A stretch of DNA of 64,000 nucleotides from a virus: positions 89,376 through 153,375 of IMG/VR virus record IMGVR_UViG_3300049855_000474. One strand, 5' to 3'. The stretch's first letter is position 1. Each line of letters begins with the position of its first letter. The notes beneath the pieces are model-generated. The model saw only the letters and a list, made by a program, of their open reading frames with translations. It had not been told where the DNA came from and ran no database searches. The translations under genes and the position numbers were made by a program. Shown here in pieces: positions 3,682-45,213 of this stretch.

Positions 3682-4026
3682 TTACATCTGTGATAACGAA
3701 TCTGCGATAAGAAAAGCAATTGTTTTACTTGTCTTTTCTACATCTATAACGCAAAGGAGCTTCTTCTCCCCAGAAACAGGCTTCCAATGAACCAAGTACT
3801 CAAAACGAATATCAAATTTCTGCAGGGTCAGCGATCCTATCTTCGTCTCTGTAATCCTGGAAAATACATCAAACTCTACAGGAGACTTAAAGAGAATCAG
3901 CTTACCTATACTGTCTTTTACAAGTTTGTGGTTAATAAGCGACTCTATGTCGGGAAGCTTAGAAGCTAAATGCTCCTCAGGAGTTCCACGACAACAAGAC
4001 ATTCTATTTAGTATCCACGTTAGCAC
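3682..4026 (-). CDS. hypothetical protein
   Basis: ORF overlapping the end of the tubulin gene. Confidence 0.55.
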   Translation of the reverse strand: MLTWILNRMSCCRGTPEEHLASKLPDIESLINHKLVKDSIGKLILFKSPVEFDVFSRITETKIGSLTLQKFDIRFEYLVHWKPVSGEKKLLCVIDVEKTSKTIAFLIADSLSQM

Positions 4027-17591: not shown

Positions 17592-18719
17592 ATGCCTGTT
17601 AAAGGATATAGACCGCCTGACGTAGACAGGGTCACCACCGATACTGACGTGTTGGATGACTTGGTTCAGCGCCATGTGCGCGAAGACCTACTTCCAATGA
17701 TCGCACAGAAATCTAGAAATGCCCTCAATGTTACACCGGTCTACATTGAGTATTTTCAAAGGCTCAAGACAGGCAGGCGCTGTTCTTGCTTTACTGTAGA
17801 AACGGATGCAGGCGGTCAATGTCCAGCCTGCTTTGGTACAGGTATCGTAGGCGGATACACTAAACGTGGTACCAAAACGGAAGTATTTGACGTTACCTAC
17901 CAAAATGTAGTGGCGGCTAACGTCCAAGCGGATTACAGTAATAGTACAAGACCTGTTTACTGGACCCTGGTGGATACAGCGGTCTATGGAACCCTAGAGT
18001 TTACAGTACAGGTTAATAAAAATTGTGGTCTTCTGGACGTTTACGAAATTAGAGACTATCAACCTACAGGCACTCTGATTCAGTACTTTGTGAGGGCAGA
18101 CGACGAAATCAACTTCGTAGCTATGACCCGAGCAGCACTAGAACAACGGCTAACAACAAGTTTTCTACATTTCAAAATTACAATAAAACGTAATAGTCCG
18201 GCAGCACCTCTACCGAAACTACAATTGTTTAGGTTTTCTTATCGGCTGCTTCGTTTGTCTTGTTTGCGTGCGGATATCCCGAGAGTAACAGAAAGCCAAA
18301 CACTAGAAGAGCTAGGACTCTATCAAAGCTGGACTAATCAGTCATATTTTCTAGACAACACGCTCAAAAACTGCTCAACCGAGGATTTTCTGATAAACCT
18401 ACAGGATAATACAAGATGGAAGGTAAACGAAGTAAAGGGAAATGCTCCACTGAACATCACCTTGTCGTGGGACCTAACTTGCCGTCTTGTTCTTGATACA
18501 GAACCTTATGCACTGGTACCAGCAGGCGTCGTAGATTCGAGTGTTTTGCCTTCTCAATTTATACGTTCTATACAAACTGACAAAGAGATTGTGGAACAGA
18601 CTCAACTTAATCCTGGGCATTTACGTCTACCTGGGAACAGGGCGGATCAAACTAACGTCAATCAAAGCCCCGTCGCGCCTGGTATTGCAGATGTGGCAAA
18701 ACCTAGTCGAAATACGTAA
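17592..18719 (+). CDS. putative head-completion/neck protein
   Basis: GRRCSC...CPACFGTGIVGGY motif characteristic of large-myophage neck proteins; SD AGGAG. Confidence 0.65.
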   Translation: MPVKGYRPPDVDRVTTDTDVLDDLVQRHVREDLLPMIAQKSRNALNVTPVYIEYFQRLKTGRRCSCFTVETDAGGQCPACFGTGIVGGYTKRGTKTEVFDVTYQNVVAANVQADYSNSTRPVYWTLVDTAVYGTLEFTVQVNKNCGLLDVYEIRDYQPTGTLIQYFVRADDEINFVAMTRAALEQRLTTSFLHFKITIKRNSPAAPLPKLQLFRFSYRLLRLSCLRADIPRVTESQTLEELGLYQSWTNQSYFLDNTLKNCSTEDFLINLQDNTRWKVNEVKGNAPLNITLSWDLTCRLVLDTEPYALVPAGVVDSSVLPSQFIRSIQTDKEIVEQTQLNPGHLRLPGNRADQTNVNQSPVAPGIADVAKPSRNT

Positions 18720-18731
18720 ACGAGGAAGAAA

Positions 18732-19076
18732 ATGGCGACGATTACTATCAAGATAAATACTGCGACAGTACCGGAAAAAGCGGTTATCGTTCTAGGTGAT
18801 TATCAACACGTCAAAAATTTGAGTCAGACTGTATCGGTAAACAAACCTCCGGTAGTCAGCACACATCACGGAGTTTCTAGGACACAGGAGTCCTTTATAG
18901 GCGGTTTAGTAATCAGTCAGTACGAGCAATCGTACGACCAGGAAATTTTCAAGCGATGGAACTGGGGAATGATCGCCGAACTAGCCACATTGATTGAGAA
19001 AAACAAAGTTTCTGTGAAATTAGATGGGGCAGCCCAAACAGCAACCCAAATACGAGCAATGTACACTTCGACGTAA
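18732..19076 (+). CDS. hypothetical protein
   Basis: SD GAGG, ORF in run. Confidence 0.65.
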   Translation: MATITIKINTATVPEKAVIVLGDYQHVKNLSQTVSVNKPPVVSTHHGVSRTQESFIGGLVISQYEQSYDQEIFKRWNWGMIAELATLIEKNKVSVKLDGAAQTATQIRAMYTST

Positions 19077-19085
19077 AGCTAAAAT

Positions 19086-19385
19086 ATGAAACCTACATAC
19101 ACCGAGAAGAGCATCGAAGGTATTCACTACTTCGCAATGTCAAAGACCGCCGCTGTTTCACAGGTGGTCCTTCGAATTTGTGAACTAGCAATATTGCATC
19201 GAGCGCATTTCGGAGATGTCATTCTTGACTTATCCGATGCTAAAGATTCAGATATCCCTTTACTCAATAGAGCTGTAAAGAAGTTGGTAGCGACCAATAG
19301 AAAAGTCGTAACCATAGGCAAACAATTTCAAAATATGCCCGTGCATACATCTATACAGTCTGCGGTGTCAGCCTTGAAGGATTAA
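19086..19385 (+). CDS. STAS-like (anti-sigma antagonist-like) protein
   Basis: VILDLSDAKDSD...KKL...KVVTIG...VHTSIQSA matches the STAS layout. Confidence 0.5.
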   Translation: MKPTYTEKSIEGIHYFAMSKTAAVSQVVLRICELAILHRAHFGDVILDLSDAKDSDIPLLNRAVKKLVATNRKVVTIGKQFQNMPVHTSIQSAVSALKD

Positions 19386-19413
19386 AGTTTTAATGTAACC
19401 AGGAGAAGAGCCT

Positions 19414-19611
19414 ATGGCGTACGTTGTAGTGGATATGGTTAATGATACCGAAGAAATTCTCTGCAGTGATAAATGTTGCGCAAGTTGCAACTGTTCATTA
19501 GAGAACTGCACAACCTACGCAGCGGGGGCTTCGCAGATATGCGTCGATTGCGCCAAACAAGAAGCTGCAAAGTATCATGAACATGTGATGCCTAGGCTTG
19601 AAACTTACTAA
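19414..19611 (+). CDS. small Zn-finger protein
   Basis: CASC...CVDC; SD AGGAG. Confidence 0.6.
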   Translation: MAYVVVDMVNDTEEILCSDKCCASCNCSLENCTTYAAGASQICVDCAKQEAAKYHEHVMPRLETY

Positions 19612-19677
19612 ATTTCCTTTAGTTTACTCTTAGCTTAATCTTTGGCTTACCACCTTACACACTAAAGGTGCTCAGCC

Positions 19678-19974
19678 ATGTCTAATACTATTATAGCTCT
19701 TGTAAGATGTACAGGATGTGAGGTAGACAGCCTGGCTCGTATCGTTCTTCAAGAACGTGAAGGTCAACCTTTCCGCTGTATTGAGCCTCCTAGACCCTGG
19801 CTATATGTATGGGCTGCTACAAGCAGTAAAGAAAAAGATTCAGTCTTCGCATGCTGTCGCTGGTGTGCTCGTGATATTATGGCGGAAATCGTCAACACGA
19901 CCAATGAAAAGATTGTGTACTCCTGGTGTGAGCAGACACAAGTTAGGGAGCGGTACGAGGTCAAAGATGAATGA
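19678..19974 (+). CDS. hypothetical Zn-binding protein
   Basis: CTGC...CCRWC. Confidence 0.6.
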   Translation: MSNTIIALVRCTGCEVDSLARIVLQEREGQPFRCIEPPRPWLYVWAATSSKEKDSVFACCRWCARDIMAEIVNTTNEKIVYSWCEQTQVRERYEVKDE

Positions 19975-20079
19975 GAGTCGTTATATAATTGAAGGATGCG
20001 AAAAGTGTATCCAAGGCAGTATAAGCCTAATACACTAGTAATTTCGAGAACCTCCAAGGAAGGAAGGAGGACGGGGTCA

Positions 20080-20583
20080 ATGACTAAAAGCAAAAAGTCG
20101 ATTAAGAAAACTCTAAATCGACCGAAACGTGTTTTGGGTCTTGACCCCGGTTAAATTTGCACCGTGAACTTTGCATTTAGTTTCTTAGTAGACGGCACAC
20201 TAGAGGAAACTGGTTGGTTAAAGCCTCAACCGAATGTCACAGATGACGCTGCTTTCCTTAATAACATCATAGAACTAATTCTTAGACTAAAGCCAGATGC
20301 CATAATAGCAGAACGCTATATGTTTCGTGGTATACAGAGCATACAAACTGAGCTAATTAGCCAAATGCTGGGACGCATAGCCATTATCACCAGGTATTAT
20401 CTAGGTCAAGAATTGTATCAGATTACAGCGTCGCAATGGAAAAACTTCTATAAAGTCAAGAAGCTAAAGAACGGTGTATACGACCTGTTCCCAGAAGACA
20501 CAGAGAGATTTGACCTAATCCACCAAGTGGACGCTGCCTGTATCGCTAAATACGGACAAGAGCGTTGGTGTTTACTAAAATGA
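20080..20583 (+). CDS. ruvC: RuvC-like Holliday junction resolvase interrupted by an in-frame TAA (20152-20154)
   Basis: SD GGAGG + ATG 20080 gives ...RVLGLDPG*ICTVNFAFS in frame with ORF 20164-20583 (IIAER, SQWK, HQVDAACIA). Confidence 0.8.
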
Positions 20584-20867
20584 CAGATTTCAACAAAGAA
20601 TATCCAGCCTGGTCAGTAAATAAACAAGAAGCCAAGAAAATTGGGGATCGTTTAGGTGTGGACTGGACAAGATTCCCTATCGAAGAGTTTCAAAAAGGGA
20701 TTGAAATTGAGTTCGAACACGTGACCGACATCGTGGAAGCTGCTCGGATTGCTATTATGCACCTAGTAGAATCTAAAACTTACTACAGGGACTTGGAGAG
20801 TGTTGAAAATAAAAAGGTCTCCGAGCACAGAAAAGTTCTCCTTGCCTTTATTAGGCAAGATCGATAG
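20580..20867 (+). CDS. DUF5661-like protein
   Basis: EEFQKGIEIEFEH...ARIAIMHLVESKTYY motif (family recalled from memory). Confidence 0.65.
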   Translation: MTDFNKEYPAWSVNKQEAKKIGDRLGVDWTRFPIEEFQKGIEIEFEHVTDIVEAARIAIMHLVESKTYYRDLESVENKKVSEHRKVLLAFIRQDR

Positions 20868-20869
20868 TT

Positions 20870-21150
20870 AAGCTCACCTACCATGTGTAGGTAGAGTAAC
20901 GGGGTTGTTAGGCAACCCCAGCCTTTTCACAGCAAGCTAGGCAATAGTGCTGACCTGACGGGTCCTTGCTGTAAAACCGACGTTGAAAAGCGTCCGTTAC
21001 GGAAACACTCAGCGCCCCGGCAAGTCTGGTTCAAAGAGTGAGACTCTAATGTCTAGGAGGGAATCATATGGAACTATGTAGTCTAGAGGCATGCAACCCC
21101 GAGCCGGCAGGTAAGCAGCAAAGTCGAGCCTAATATTCCCTGAAAACTTA
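20870..21150 (+). ncRNA. structured non-coding RNA with group-I-intron-like elements
   Basis: No credible ORF; dense helices (ACCTAC/GTAGGT, GGGGTTG/CAACCCC, ACAGCAAG/CTTGCTGT, GTGCTGA/TCAGCGC, GACGTT-GAAA-AGCGTC, AGGGAAT/ATTCCCT); followed by a terminator. Confidence 0.65.
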
Positions 21151-21151
21151 C

Positions 21152-21178
21152 AAAGCCCACCAAAAAGGTGGGCTTTCC
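21152..21178. terminator. bidirectional intrinsic terminator
   Basis: AAAGCCCACC-AAAAA-GGTGGGCTTT between convergent transcription units. Confidence 0.75.
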
Positions 21179-21183
21179 TAATT

Positions 21184-22158
21184 CTAGACAACTCGATTGA
21201 ATTCCTCTTGAAGAGAGGAGATATCCACTCGAATAGGACCGTAGTTTTCAATCATGCGATCCTGAATAACCGATGTTTTTTCACTGAAAGCGGCTAACCA
21301 AGTAGGCGCCTTACCCACACGCTTAGTCAAAGCCAGAGAATTATCGGGAACTTCCTCAGGAAATAAATCAGAAAGACCAAAATGCAGATGCTCTTGAAGG
21401 AGCCCATTTAGTAATTTAGAGGAGAGACCTAATGCTTCCTCTAAGTTACCTTGGGTGTTATACTTACGAATGGCCCAATTCAAGACCTCTGTAATCTCAA
21501 CCCCGCACGAAGATTCCAAAGATAGGACATGAACAGGCTTAGAAATCGAACAAGAAATACTACAATACTTATACCCATGATCTTCAATAGGAGCTTCGGT
21601 TAATGGTTGTTCACAAACAGAACATACAGAAAAATTCAACAAAGTTACAAAACGAGAATCGATCTCATACCCAGAGGTAGTATCTACCGATTCCTGACGT
21701 AAGAATAGCAATGCTTTATTGGTATCCTCGGTAATTTGCTTATGAGGGGTCCCGAGAATCATGCTCAACTCCAAGGTACTGAGCGTATCTACCTTGTGCT
21801 TACTCATATAAACTAAAATACAGTTTCGTACTCCTGGGTAGGTAGTGTAAAAAGAACAGTCACGAAGAGCACAATCAGTAATAATAGGCTCACCATGAAC
21901 TTTACACTTGACGTCTCCGACCTTAGCGCGAGCGGTTTGCCATAAACCTAACTTCTGAAGAGCCGAAACTGCCATATTCTTATCAAATATTGACATAATC
22001 TCTAATGATTTAGGCATATTACAAGCACTACAGGCTTGTAATGCTGGTAAACCACTTTGAGAGAGTTCGGATTCTAGCTGATCGCAAGTTGAACTACGTT
22101 CGAGTCCGTGCTTACAAGAAGCATCTTTTAGTACAGTCAAAGTATATTTTGATGACAT
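21184..22158 (-). CDS. Cys-rich protein with sigma-region-4-like HTH (putative transcription regulator)
   Basis: Several CxxC pairs; TLSTLELSMILGTPHKQI...ALLFLR HTH pattern. Confidence 0.55.
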   Translation of the reverse strand: MSSKYTLTVLKDASCKHGLERSSTCDQLESELSQSGLPALQACSACNMPKSLEIMSIFDKNMAVSALQKLGLWQTARAKVGDVKCKVHGEPIITDCALRDCSFYTTYPGVRNCILVYMSKHKVDTLSTLELSMILGTPHKQITEDTNKALLFLRQESVDTTSGYEIDSRFVTLLNFSVCSVCEQPLTEAPIEDHGYKYCSISCSISKPVHVLSLESSCGVEITEVLNWAIRKYNTQGNLEEALGLSSKLLNGLLQEHLHFGLSDLFPEEVPDNSLALTKRVGKAPTWLAAFSEKTSVIQDRMIENYGPIRVDISSLQEEFNRVV

Positions 22159-43123: not shown

Positions 43124-43945
43124 ATGTCAAAATTAGTAGGATTAGCGTTTACATCCCCAGGTCTCGCAGTTTGTGTTATAGACCGAGAAAAGTACAGAGT
43201 TTGCTACCACGATCAGTCCACCGCAGCGGACTTCCGCCTATTTCTGCAACAGAAAGATGATAGGAAGCCGGTGGTCTTTGTGACATCGGCTCGTGTATTG
43301 GCTGAAATTCAACCAATGGGAGAAGGCACAGTAGAGAGTTACGTTCTATTCAGTGATCCTGCTATTCTCACCGAAATCAAAGGAATTCACCTGCCAGATA
43401 TTACAGGAGAAGCAGCGGGAGGATGGACTAGAGTAAATATTACCCCAGACGAGTTTAATGCTATACTTGATAAGGGGGCGACTGAAACCTTTGAAGTCAC
43501 AGAAAAAGCACTCACCGCAAGTGGGGACTTAACTAAAGGTATTACTTTTAAAGAATTGGTGGAAGCTGTCGAAGCCTCCTATAGAGAGTTGGGTAAAGAT
43601 TCTACCGACATGGTTCTTCAGGCTTGTCGTTATGTGACAAAACTAATCAGCAAGAAAACATGGGTATCATCAGCCCGAAAACCTGCTCTAAACGCAGGAA
43701 TAAGCGTAAAAGTGCTAGCGGAACTTGAGAAATCTATTGAAACAGACAAAGCCGCTGAGGAGCTTTGGCGCGCTTTTTATGAATTGGCAACCAATGGCAC
43801 GGATAGCCAAAAGATCCTGACGAACTATGCAGTGACTAAGGACGATATCGACCTTCTCGTGAATAAACTAAAACCAGGACAAGGGCAGACCTTCGATTTC
43901 ACAGCTGTTCCGGGTGCGGCTAAGAAAAAGAAGAAATCGTCTTGA
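43124..43945 (+). CDS. hypothetical protein
   Basis: 273-aa ORF with SD. Confidence 0.7.
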   Translation: MSKLVGLAFTSPGLAVCVIDREKYRVCYHDQSTAADFRLFLQQKDDRKPVVFVTSARVLAEIQPMGEGTVESYVLFSDPAILTEIKGIHLPDITGEAAGGWTRVNITPDEFNAILDKGATETFEVTEKALTASGDLTKGITFKELVEAVEASYRELGKDSTDMVLQACRYVTKLISKKTWVSSARKPALNAGISVKVLAELEKSIETDKAAEELWRAFYELATNGTDSQKILTNYAVTKDDIDLLVNKLKPGQGQTFDFTAVPGAAKKKKKSS

Positions 43946-43969
43946 CACGAGCCTAAAAGGCTTTAGTGT
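43942..43969 (+). promoter_or_regulatory. sigma-70-type promoter
   Basis: TTGACA-16 nt-TAGTGT upstream of 44009. Confidence 0.55.
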
Positions 43970-44008
43970 AAGCAAGTCAATCTCAGTCTCAGCAAAAGGA
44001 TTAGTACA

Positions 44009-44746
44009 ATGACCAAATTAAATCAAATTTTAGCGATAGAAAAAGGCGAGAAGAACAAGAGCTTCAAGCAACTTACTGACTTGCACCACAAGTCGGAAAA
44101 GGCGGAGCTTTACGAGGGTAGGGTTCGTACCTATACCCCAGCTGCTGAGGATGGCGAGCAGCTCCCACCCGAGACGCAGGTCGTGCAGCAGAATGCTGAT
44201 GACGTTCTTAGCCAGTTCCAGAATATCCTGGTGCCTCTTTGGGATATTACAGCAACTAAGGACTATACTAACGGACAGTCCGGTTATGCTGACATCGTGG
44301 TGAATGGTCGTACTCTTCTCACCAAGGTTCCAGTAAGTTATCTTCTCTTTCTGGAGAAGCAGTTGGCGGATGTCGAGACCTTCATTTCCAAGATCCCTAC
44401 CTTGGATGCTTCCCAGAAGTGGTCTTTTGATGAGAATCAGAAGTGCCATGCCACGGAGAAGACTTGGCAGAATCGAGCCAAGAAGGTTCTGAAGAATCAT
44501 GTAAAGTCAGTAGCAACTGATAAGCATCCGGCACAGGTCGATGTGTATAACGAGGACATCGTCATCGGTAGGTACGAGTCTATTCGTTTCTCTGGTGCTG
44601 TTTCAGTCAGCAAGAAGGAAATGCTCCTTAGTCGCGTTCGAGAGTTGAAGAACGCAGTTCTATTCGCCCGAGAACAAGCCAACTCGGTCGATGCCTCAAA
44701 GCAGGAAGTAGCGAAGGTTCTCTTCGGTTTCGTCCTGAACGGCTAA
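44009..44746 (+). CDS. conserved uncharacterised protein (DUF7873-like), candidate partner of the downstream RNA
   Basis: MTKLNQILAIEKG...RTYTP..EDGEQLPPE...VPVSYLLFLEKQL...AT.KHPAQV...FSGA...AREQAN (family recalled from memory). Confidence 0.8.
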   Translation: MTKLNQILAIEKGEKNKSFKQLTDLHHKSEKAELYEGRVRTYTPAAEDGEQLPPETQVVQQNADDVLSQFQNILVPLWDITATKDYTNGQSGYADIVVNGRTLLTKVPVSYLLFLEKQLADVETFISKIPTLDASQKWSFDENQKCHATEKTWQNRAKKVLKNHVKSVATDKHPAQVDVYNEDIVIGRYESIRFSGAVSVSKKEMLLSRVRELKNAVLFAREQANSVDASKQEVAKVLFGFVLNG

Positions 44747-44749
44747 AGC

Positions 44750-45210
44750 TTCACAGTTCCTTGTGAACTGTGTTTGGAGACAAACTTAATCTCTTAGTAA
44801 CGATCAATCTGATATCCTTCCTTGTCCCGTAGGCAACTACTTGCAGGTTCAAGTCCTGCCCCTCTGACTGAGAATTCCTTATCTAAATAATGAATTTTGA
44901 GTCAGAGGGTGGCGAAATGGCAAACGCAGGCAACAGGTAATAAAACTATTCTCCCAAGCTCTTAAACCGCTACTATTGTGATCTCTCTCTTCTGGTATCT
45001 CCTGCTAAAGATGATGGTGCGAATCCATCTCCCTAAGCAGAGTTTCTAAGTTCTACCTCATAGGTAATAACTCGGTGATTCTGCTTAGGGATGGCCCAAC
45101 AGCAAGGCGTTAGCACTAAAACTAAGGACCAGAATTAAACGTCGTTCACATGCCGTAAACAGTAGTAAAAAATCCAGCCGGGCAGCAGGCTTCGCTGCCC
45201 GGCATTTTTA
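44750..45210 (+). ncRNA. ~460-nt RNA with two tandem circularly permuted tRNA-like (YrlA/Y-RNA-like) modules
   Basis: T arm precedes the acceptor hairpin and D arm in both modules (44822-44933 and 45003-45115); ends in a terminator. Confidence 0.85.
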
Positions 45211-45213
45211 TTT
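45178..45213 (+). terminator. intrinsic terminator
   Basis: GCCGGGCAGC...GCTGCCCGGC followed by ATTTTTATTT. Confidence 0.9.

Follow-up and report, generated by a model that had tools for sequence, protein, structure and literature searches.

A covariation-supported RNA, proposed to be an mRNA leader, abuts a conserved micro-ORF in a clade of probable freshwater jumbo phages

The closest architectural analogue of the locus described here is the Downstream-peptide or yfr6 RNA of cyanobacteria and marine metagenomes, which we take to be the glutamine-II riboswitch (RF01704). Its ~250-nt 'ncRNAs' proved to be riboswitch-type 5' UTRs followed by ORFs of 17-100 amino acids belonging to no known family, a coding call that rested on frame-preserving variation (PMC2864571). 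The phage element shares with these RNAs a conserved structured 5' UTR that leads into a very short ORF. However, its leader is about twice as large, contains seven helices, shows no evident pseudoknot over the Shine-Dalgarno (SD) sequence and comes from what is probably a freshwater-sediment jumbo phage. We regard the likeness as resemblance rather than membership because there was no sequence or model match, with neither RF01704 nor RF01739 found at E<=10 in the window region and three homologues. Leader-peptide attenuators such as Phe_leader (RF01859) likewise set a tiny ORF before an intrinsic terminator, and in one homologue (L007) the ORF together with the terminator gives a weak, sub-threshold Phe_leader match (score 20.8 bits, cut-off 55, E = 0.34). 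Unlike in attenuators, the conserved structure here lies upstream of the ORF instead of between ORF and terminator, the ORF has no run of regulatory codons, and on that strand the terminator has no gene behind it. A third comparison is with type I toxin mRNAs of the hok, tisB and zorO class: the features in common are an extended, structured 5' UTR, a very small ORF and, possibly, long-range sequestration of the SD; the phage element departs from them in its hydrophilic peptide, in the absence of any antitoxin RNA that we could see and in its lytic-type jumbo phage carrier. To our knowledge, very few structured regulatory RNAs have been described from jumbo phages, whose gene regulation is largely uncharted.

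We analysed a 64,000-nt stretch of DNA, hereafter the window, the 3'-terminal portion of an IMG/VR record that spans 153 kb and has a CheckV completeness of 36%. The source is an uncultivated jumbo phage, probably sampled in a freshwater-sediment metagenome; with the large terminases of jumbo phages in culture, its own shares only ~30% identity. The element occupies a 316-nt gap (20868-21183) between the stop codons of two complete, convergent genes: a plus-strand ORF (20565-20867) encoding a DUF5661 protein (Pfam E = 2.6e-14) and a minus-strand ORF (21184-22158) encoding a 324-aa protein that matched no Pfam or PHROG family. Folding of the gap yields -103 kcal/mol (z = -2.65 against dinucleotide shuffles), and a 10-bp hairpin lies near its end (21152-21176). 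A preliminary description of this DNA had noted an intergenic, terminator-bounded, heavily paired stretch that interrupts no host gene, and these points were borne out. Upstream, a co-directional string of small plus-strand genes (17592-20867), including a RuvC-like resolvase gene, runs up to the element, and a scan of the window locus revealed no recognisable sigma-70 promoter in front of it. The convergent 324-aa protein contains several invariant Cys/His clusters and belongs to an unnamed phage protein family; a search of 1.84 billion representative proteins yielded 207 relatives (E<=1e-3). Profile searches of the PDB with this protein returned designed-repeat matches alone and no informative relative.

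Homologues of the element were reached through this neighbouring 324-aa protein, by way of seven close relatives in a 5.8-billion-protein set and one relative in IMG/VR. All eight contigs align with the gap and hold 290-410 nt of intergenic sequence at the same place, except that a contig end cuts L010 to ~250 nt. The family as analysed thus comprises nine sequences from about five lineages of one phage clade, all found via a single neighbouring gene. We built a covariance model, R1, of the 5' two-thirds of the element (160 positions, 31 pairs), against which all nine sequences score 129-150 bits. R1 has no match over 43942-45213 of the window, so that stretch holds no paralogue of the RNA. 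Searches elsewhere extended the family no further. Pattern scans of IMG/VR recovered one relative (L002/L003) and no additional members, two scans of GTDB genomes gave no matches, and a nucleotide search of INPHARED phages with the element was likewise negative. A scan of JGI metagenomes produced ten pattern matches, none significant with the covariance model; the best of them (L012, E = 0.78) turned out on inspection to be an ordinary bacterial intergenic spacer. Even with search filters off, the RNA was absent from four contigs (L024-L027) whose homologue of the neighbouring gene is 31-37% identical. Across the collections searched, the RNA cassette thus appears confined to one jumbo-phage clade.

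The surroundings of the cassette change on one side. What precedes it depends on the member: the DUF5661 gene, an extra ORF of 103 aa, a gene in decay or a divergent ORF. Despite these changing upstream neighbours the cassette and the convergent gene remain constant, which speaks for a self-contained unit. The extra ORF, of ~103-106 aa, separates the DUF5661 gene from the RNA in L002 (4036-4347, minus strand), L009 and L004; in the first two of these, its final codons extend into the first accessory hairpin described below. In L006 the DUF5661 gene is apparently truncated to a 42-aa ORF (3869-3997) and the gap measures ~390 nt, with the RNA cassette intact. In L008 the ORF upstream of the RNA is divergent (2175-2320, on the minus strand of the locus), and by eye we recognised a plausible sigma-70-like promoter, TTTACC-18 nt-TATATA, ~45 nt before the conserved GUAACGGG. 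Its presence suggests, tentatively, that the cassette can be transcribed on its own.

Comparison of the nine sequences supports a ~145-nt structured leader that runs directly into a ribosome-binding site and a mini-gene. In the model-based alignment, standard pairs fill 97.8% of 272 pair cells, and the same helices are 94.7% paired in a MAFFT alignment that was not fitted to the structure. Sliding the 3' partners by one to three columns drops pairing to 23-40%. Among the eight homologues and the window, both partners vary in 17 of the 31 pairs; the corresponding figure for shuffled alignments is 7.6±1.9, and 17 was not reached in 500 trials. Every helix contains at least one compensatory pair. 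These patterns show compensatory evolution preserving a ~125-nt, seven-helix fold. We assign the RNA to the plus strand because 19 cells hold a G·U pair, which read from the opposite strand would be A·C; the orientation of the SD sequence, ATG and ORF agrees. From 5' to 3', the cassette consists of two accessory hairpins, a four-domain leader, the SD sequence, the micro-ORF, a conserved UCCC element and a bidirectional terminator.

The leader opens with a three-way junction, Domain 1 (20930-20971), in which P1 (20930-36/20965-71) encloses P1a (20940-43/20948-51) and P1b (20952-56/20960-64). Pairing is complete in P1, where three pairs differ on both sides, and in P1b, which closes an invariant GAC loop; in P1a it is 96%, with two doubly changed pairs. 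Within P1b, L010, which is nearly identical to the window elsewhere, shows a double compensatory change from GACC/GGUC to GAUU/AAUC. A conserved junction, UAAAACC (20972-20978), connects Domain 1 to the P2 hairpin, GACGU/GCGUC (20979-20994; strands 20979-83/20990-94), which is fully paired and has changes on both sides in three of its five pairs. P2 coincides with a hairpin that had been singled out as a P5-like extension capped by a GAAA tetraloop: the helix is real and covaries, whereas the tetraloop is not conserved, the loop varying in both sequence and length (UGAAAA, UACG, CAA and others). A second conserved junction (20995-21005), ..AC(C)GAAA or ACC(C)GAAA, leads to Domain 3 (21006-21040), a bent hairpin composed of P3, an internal loop and P3a. 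P3 (21006-09/21037-40) reads CACU/AGUG in the window, CGCC/GGCG in L002 and AGCCU/AGGCU in L005. P3a (21017-20/21026-29), fully paired in the covariance-model alignment with three pairs changed on both sides, corresponds to a CCGG/CTGG pairing earlier labelled P6-like, which therefore stands as a real, covarying helix. The leader closes with the P4 hairpin, AGAC/GUCU (21041-21054; strands 21041-44/21051-54), which is paired in all nine sequences, as AGAC/GUCU in five and AGAU/AUCU in four, and abuts the SD sequence. A 5'-3' closing helix (CUUU/AAAG, AGCCU/AGGCU) could be drawn by eye in some members and was set aside as inconsistent.

Two accessory hairpins precede this core and covary in most members. 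HP1 (20872-20897), seen in the minimum free energy (MFE) fold, has an outer CUC/GAG and an inner CCUAC/GUAGG stem, the latter covarying to CGUAC/GUACG in L005 and UCUAC/GUAGA in L002. We place HP1 outside the core because it is missing from L004 and altered in L006 and L008. HP2 (20901-20919, GGGGUUGU/GCAACCCC) is preceded by a conserved GAGUAAC and followed by AGCC(U)UUUC; a G+C-rich stem of differing sequence occupies this place in seven of the eight full-length homologues and is missing from L004. Our terminator scan did not call HP2.

One nucleotide separates the end of P4 from an invariant GGAGG, part of the window's SD sequence AGGAGGG (21055-21061). In all nine sequences an invariant ATG follows at a spacing of 7-10 nt (21068 in the window) and opens a micro-ORF. 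The window's version, MELCSLEACNPEPAGKQQSRA (21068-21133), has 21 codons plus TAA, and those of the homologues have 18-19 codons. This frame is open in every sequence, and frames +1 and +2 carry one to four stops in each. In eight sequences the stop falls in a single alignment column, where it is TGA (four), TAA (three) or TAG (one); the window has CGA in that column and a TAA two codons later. Nucleotide shuffles leave the frame open with P = 0.23-0.45 per sequence, and the product over five lineage representatives is ~0.009. The 3' half of the element has an alifold energy near zero and, unlike the 5' half, essentially no consensus RNA structure. Given the invariant GGAGG and ATG, the frame open in all nine sequences, the shared stop column and the unstructured 3' half, we read 21068-21133 as a predicted translated micro-ORF whose start, SD spacing, open frame and stop position are conserved across lineages.

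The product itself seems to matter less than its translation. The peptides are hydrophilic and charged, form no hydrophobic helix and are loosely conserved (M-K ... N-H/P ... Q-Q/R-S). Differences by codon position in various sequence pairs (5/4/2, 4/5/8, 8/8/9) show no third-position bias, so the peptide is at most weakly constrained, and synonymous changes are found in the C-terminal half of clade B only. Judged from these substitutions, constraint seems to act on translation and ORF length more than on peptide sequence. We also considered a tmRNA. In tmRNAs, the 5' and 3' ends form a tRNA-like domain and the tag ORF has neither SD nor AUG; ARAGORN found no tmRNA or tRNA in the window, and the ORF here has both an SD and an AUG.

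Just beyond the stop codon lies the UCCC element, AUUCCCU (21135-21141), present in all nine sequences 64-72 nt after the ATG and a candidate anti-SD. In the MFE folds of six of the nine sequences it pairs with GGGA of the SD region, and in the window the pairing extends to seven base pairs (AGGGAAU/AUUCCCU). Since this pairing shows no clean covariation among the nine sequences, SD sequestration by the UCCC element can be proposed from the folds but is not claimed more firmly. In partition-function modelling, removing UCCC in silico shifts SD accessibility only modestly and non-uniformly. The cassette ends with the 10-bp hairpin noted above, an intrinsic terminator that we classify as bidirectional and that is common to the convergent 324-aa gene; the terminator scan scores it on the minus strand. 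All homologues have a terminator hairpin with differing stems (CCCACC/GGUGGG, CCCGC/GCGGG), and in most of them a plus-strand U-run comes after it.

Taken together, the locus has a riboswitch-type layout, with a covariation-supported fold in a putative 5' UTR one nucleotide before the SD of a conserved ORF. The explanation we favour, at a probability of roughly 55%, is a new, clade-specific structured mRNA leader that controls a micro-ORF in a riboswitch-like manner or by binding a protein. The region would then be one plus-strand cassette of structured leader, micro-ORF and intrinsic terminator, in which the leader would act in cis as a sensor, either as a ligand-binding aptamer or as a protein-binding operator, and would set how often ribosomes load onto the micro-ORF. 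Switching could be between two states, one with the SD free and one in which it pairs with the conserved UCCC immediately downstream of the stop codon; a ribosome terminating at that stop would cover UCCC. The output might be the small peptide or the act of translation itself; the latter could alter how stable the RNA is, or how often transcription passes the shared terminator and enters the convergent gene.

A narrower form of this proposal, which we put forward tentatively and think improbable as it stands, is that the leader is the aptamer of an as yet undescribed riboswitch class that senses a metabolite or ion and gates the micro-ORF, translation of which sets transcript fate or terminator read-through. 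If so, the class would be private to a clade of freshwater jumbo phages, and the sensed metabolite could be of host or phage origin. Read-through of the terminator would reach a convergent Zn-finger/HTH-like gene, and translation of the micro-ORF would matter more than the peptide it encodes. More generally, as a leader directly coupled to a conserved micro-ORF, the element would be a tractable place to look for a new phage riboswitch or an operator bound by a protein, and it offers a concrete case for asking whether phage micro-ORFs act via their peptides or via translation itself. The narrow distribution limits the present weight of the finding, and the function of the leader is that of a candidate.

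Several other explanations account for parts of these data. The one we take most seriously, as a distinct minority possibility, is that the phage makes this RNA for its own sake, as a stable trans-acting or dual-function molecule such as a sponge, decoy or RNP component, and that the ORF is secondary or serves only to load ribosomes. The strong conservation of loop and junction sequences and the poor conservation of the peptide fit such an RNA, as do its place in a terminator-bounded unit downstream, not upstream, of ordinary genes and its occurrence as one copy per genome fragment, which is typical of RNA genes. However, an SD, AUG, frame and stop column shared by all nine sequences are hard to explain without translation, and we found no candidate target or partner. 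The element could also be a 3'-end module of the upstream operon mRNA, a protective or processing fold with the micro-ORF as last cistron and no sensing. Its position at the 3' end of the co-directional gene string, with no recognisable sigma-70 promoter, agrees with this, and HP2, with the U-rich tract behind it, might act as an attenuator of transcription. We nonetheless consider an operon module unlikely, as the element is kept both behind a divergent ORF (L008) and behind a decayed gene (L006), and hairpins that merely stabilise an mRNA need neither conserved junction sequences nor a three-way junction. Much less plausible still is a type I toxin-like mRNA in which a long SD-sequestering 5' UTR precedes a tiny toxic peptide controlled in antisense by the convergent transcript. 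The parts are there, namely the structured 5' UTR, tiny ORF, SD-pairing C-rich element, terminator and convergent transcription, but the peptides have the wrong character for a toxin, being charged and without a hydrophobic helix, no antisense RNA gene is evident, and no Rfam toxin or antitoxin RNA matches over the core.

The preliminary description had instead favoured a group-I-intron-like core without exons, possibly a domesticated or trans-acting ribozyme derivative, and of all the explanations weighed here we give this one the least credence, regarding it as refuted by the comparison of homologues. The likeness to group I introns (RF00028) is understandable, for this phage-borne RNA is some hundreds of nucleotides long and highly paired, has hairpins in the places of P5 and P6 and, in the window sequence by itself, contains 7-nt complementary segments that can be drawn as P3, P4 and P7 in group I order. 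Those long-range pairings do not hold up across homologues. Scored on the MAFFT alignment, which is independent of any structural fit, the proposed P3 (20937-43/21050-56), P4 (20947-53/21009-15) and P7 (21041-45/21080-84) have many broken cells and are 68%, 63% and 79% paired, respectively, whereas their strands form the competing local helices P1a, P1b and P4 of our model, which are 96-100% paired. The proposed P7 arises from a near-copy within the micro-ORF, GTCTAGAGG (21081-21089), of the 3' strand of P4 plus the SD, GTCTAGGAGG (21051-21060). This near-copy was observed in the window and L010 only and is not conserved in other clades. An S-like segment, TATGTAGTCT, falls inside the predicted coding micro-ORF and is not conserved, and an AGAGT/ACTCT hairpin said to compete with P7 is also not conserved among the homologues. 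Rather than the end of a ribozyme core, the 3' third of the element is a predicted translated ORF, and the G-binding P7 of group I introns is lacking. No group I exons or P1-IGS could be found, and the gene upstream of the homologues varies.

Searches against Rfam 15 pointed the same way. The whole 64-kb window gave no matches at gathering score, and scans at E<=10 with lax filters of the window region and three homologues (L005, L007, L002) returned no Intron_gpI (RF00028) or other ribozyme and nothing on the core. What these lax scans did return was sub-threshold, terminator-driven noise (P9, sroH, Phe_leader). The alternative suggestion of a new large ncRNA class fared better in part: comparative analysis supports a new, covarying seven-helix RNA that has no Rfam family, but we think it better read as a leader joined to a translated micro-ORF than as a free-standing RNA. 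The case shows that a few homologues suffice to check, and discard, group-I-like pairings seen by eye in one sequence.

The upstream gene string contains one further peculiarity. The ruvC gene (20080-20583) has a 9-nt in-frame insertion at ~20152-20160, TAA ATT TGC (*IC), directly after the catalytic LDPG, so that the window's RuvC reads ...LGLDPG*ICTVNFAF where its relatives read ...LGLDPGTVNFAW. We considered whether the 5' hairpins of the RNA might guide excision of this insertion and rejected the idea, as five aligned relatives with an uninterrupted ruvC keep the RNA, whose conservation is therefore independent of the insertion. In these five related phages RuvC reads LDPG-T/V-x-NF and the 9 nt are missing. 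Outside the insertion the window's ruvC is intact, and it is 53-80% identical to its relatives.
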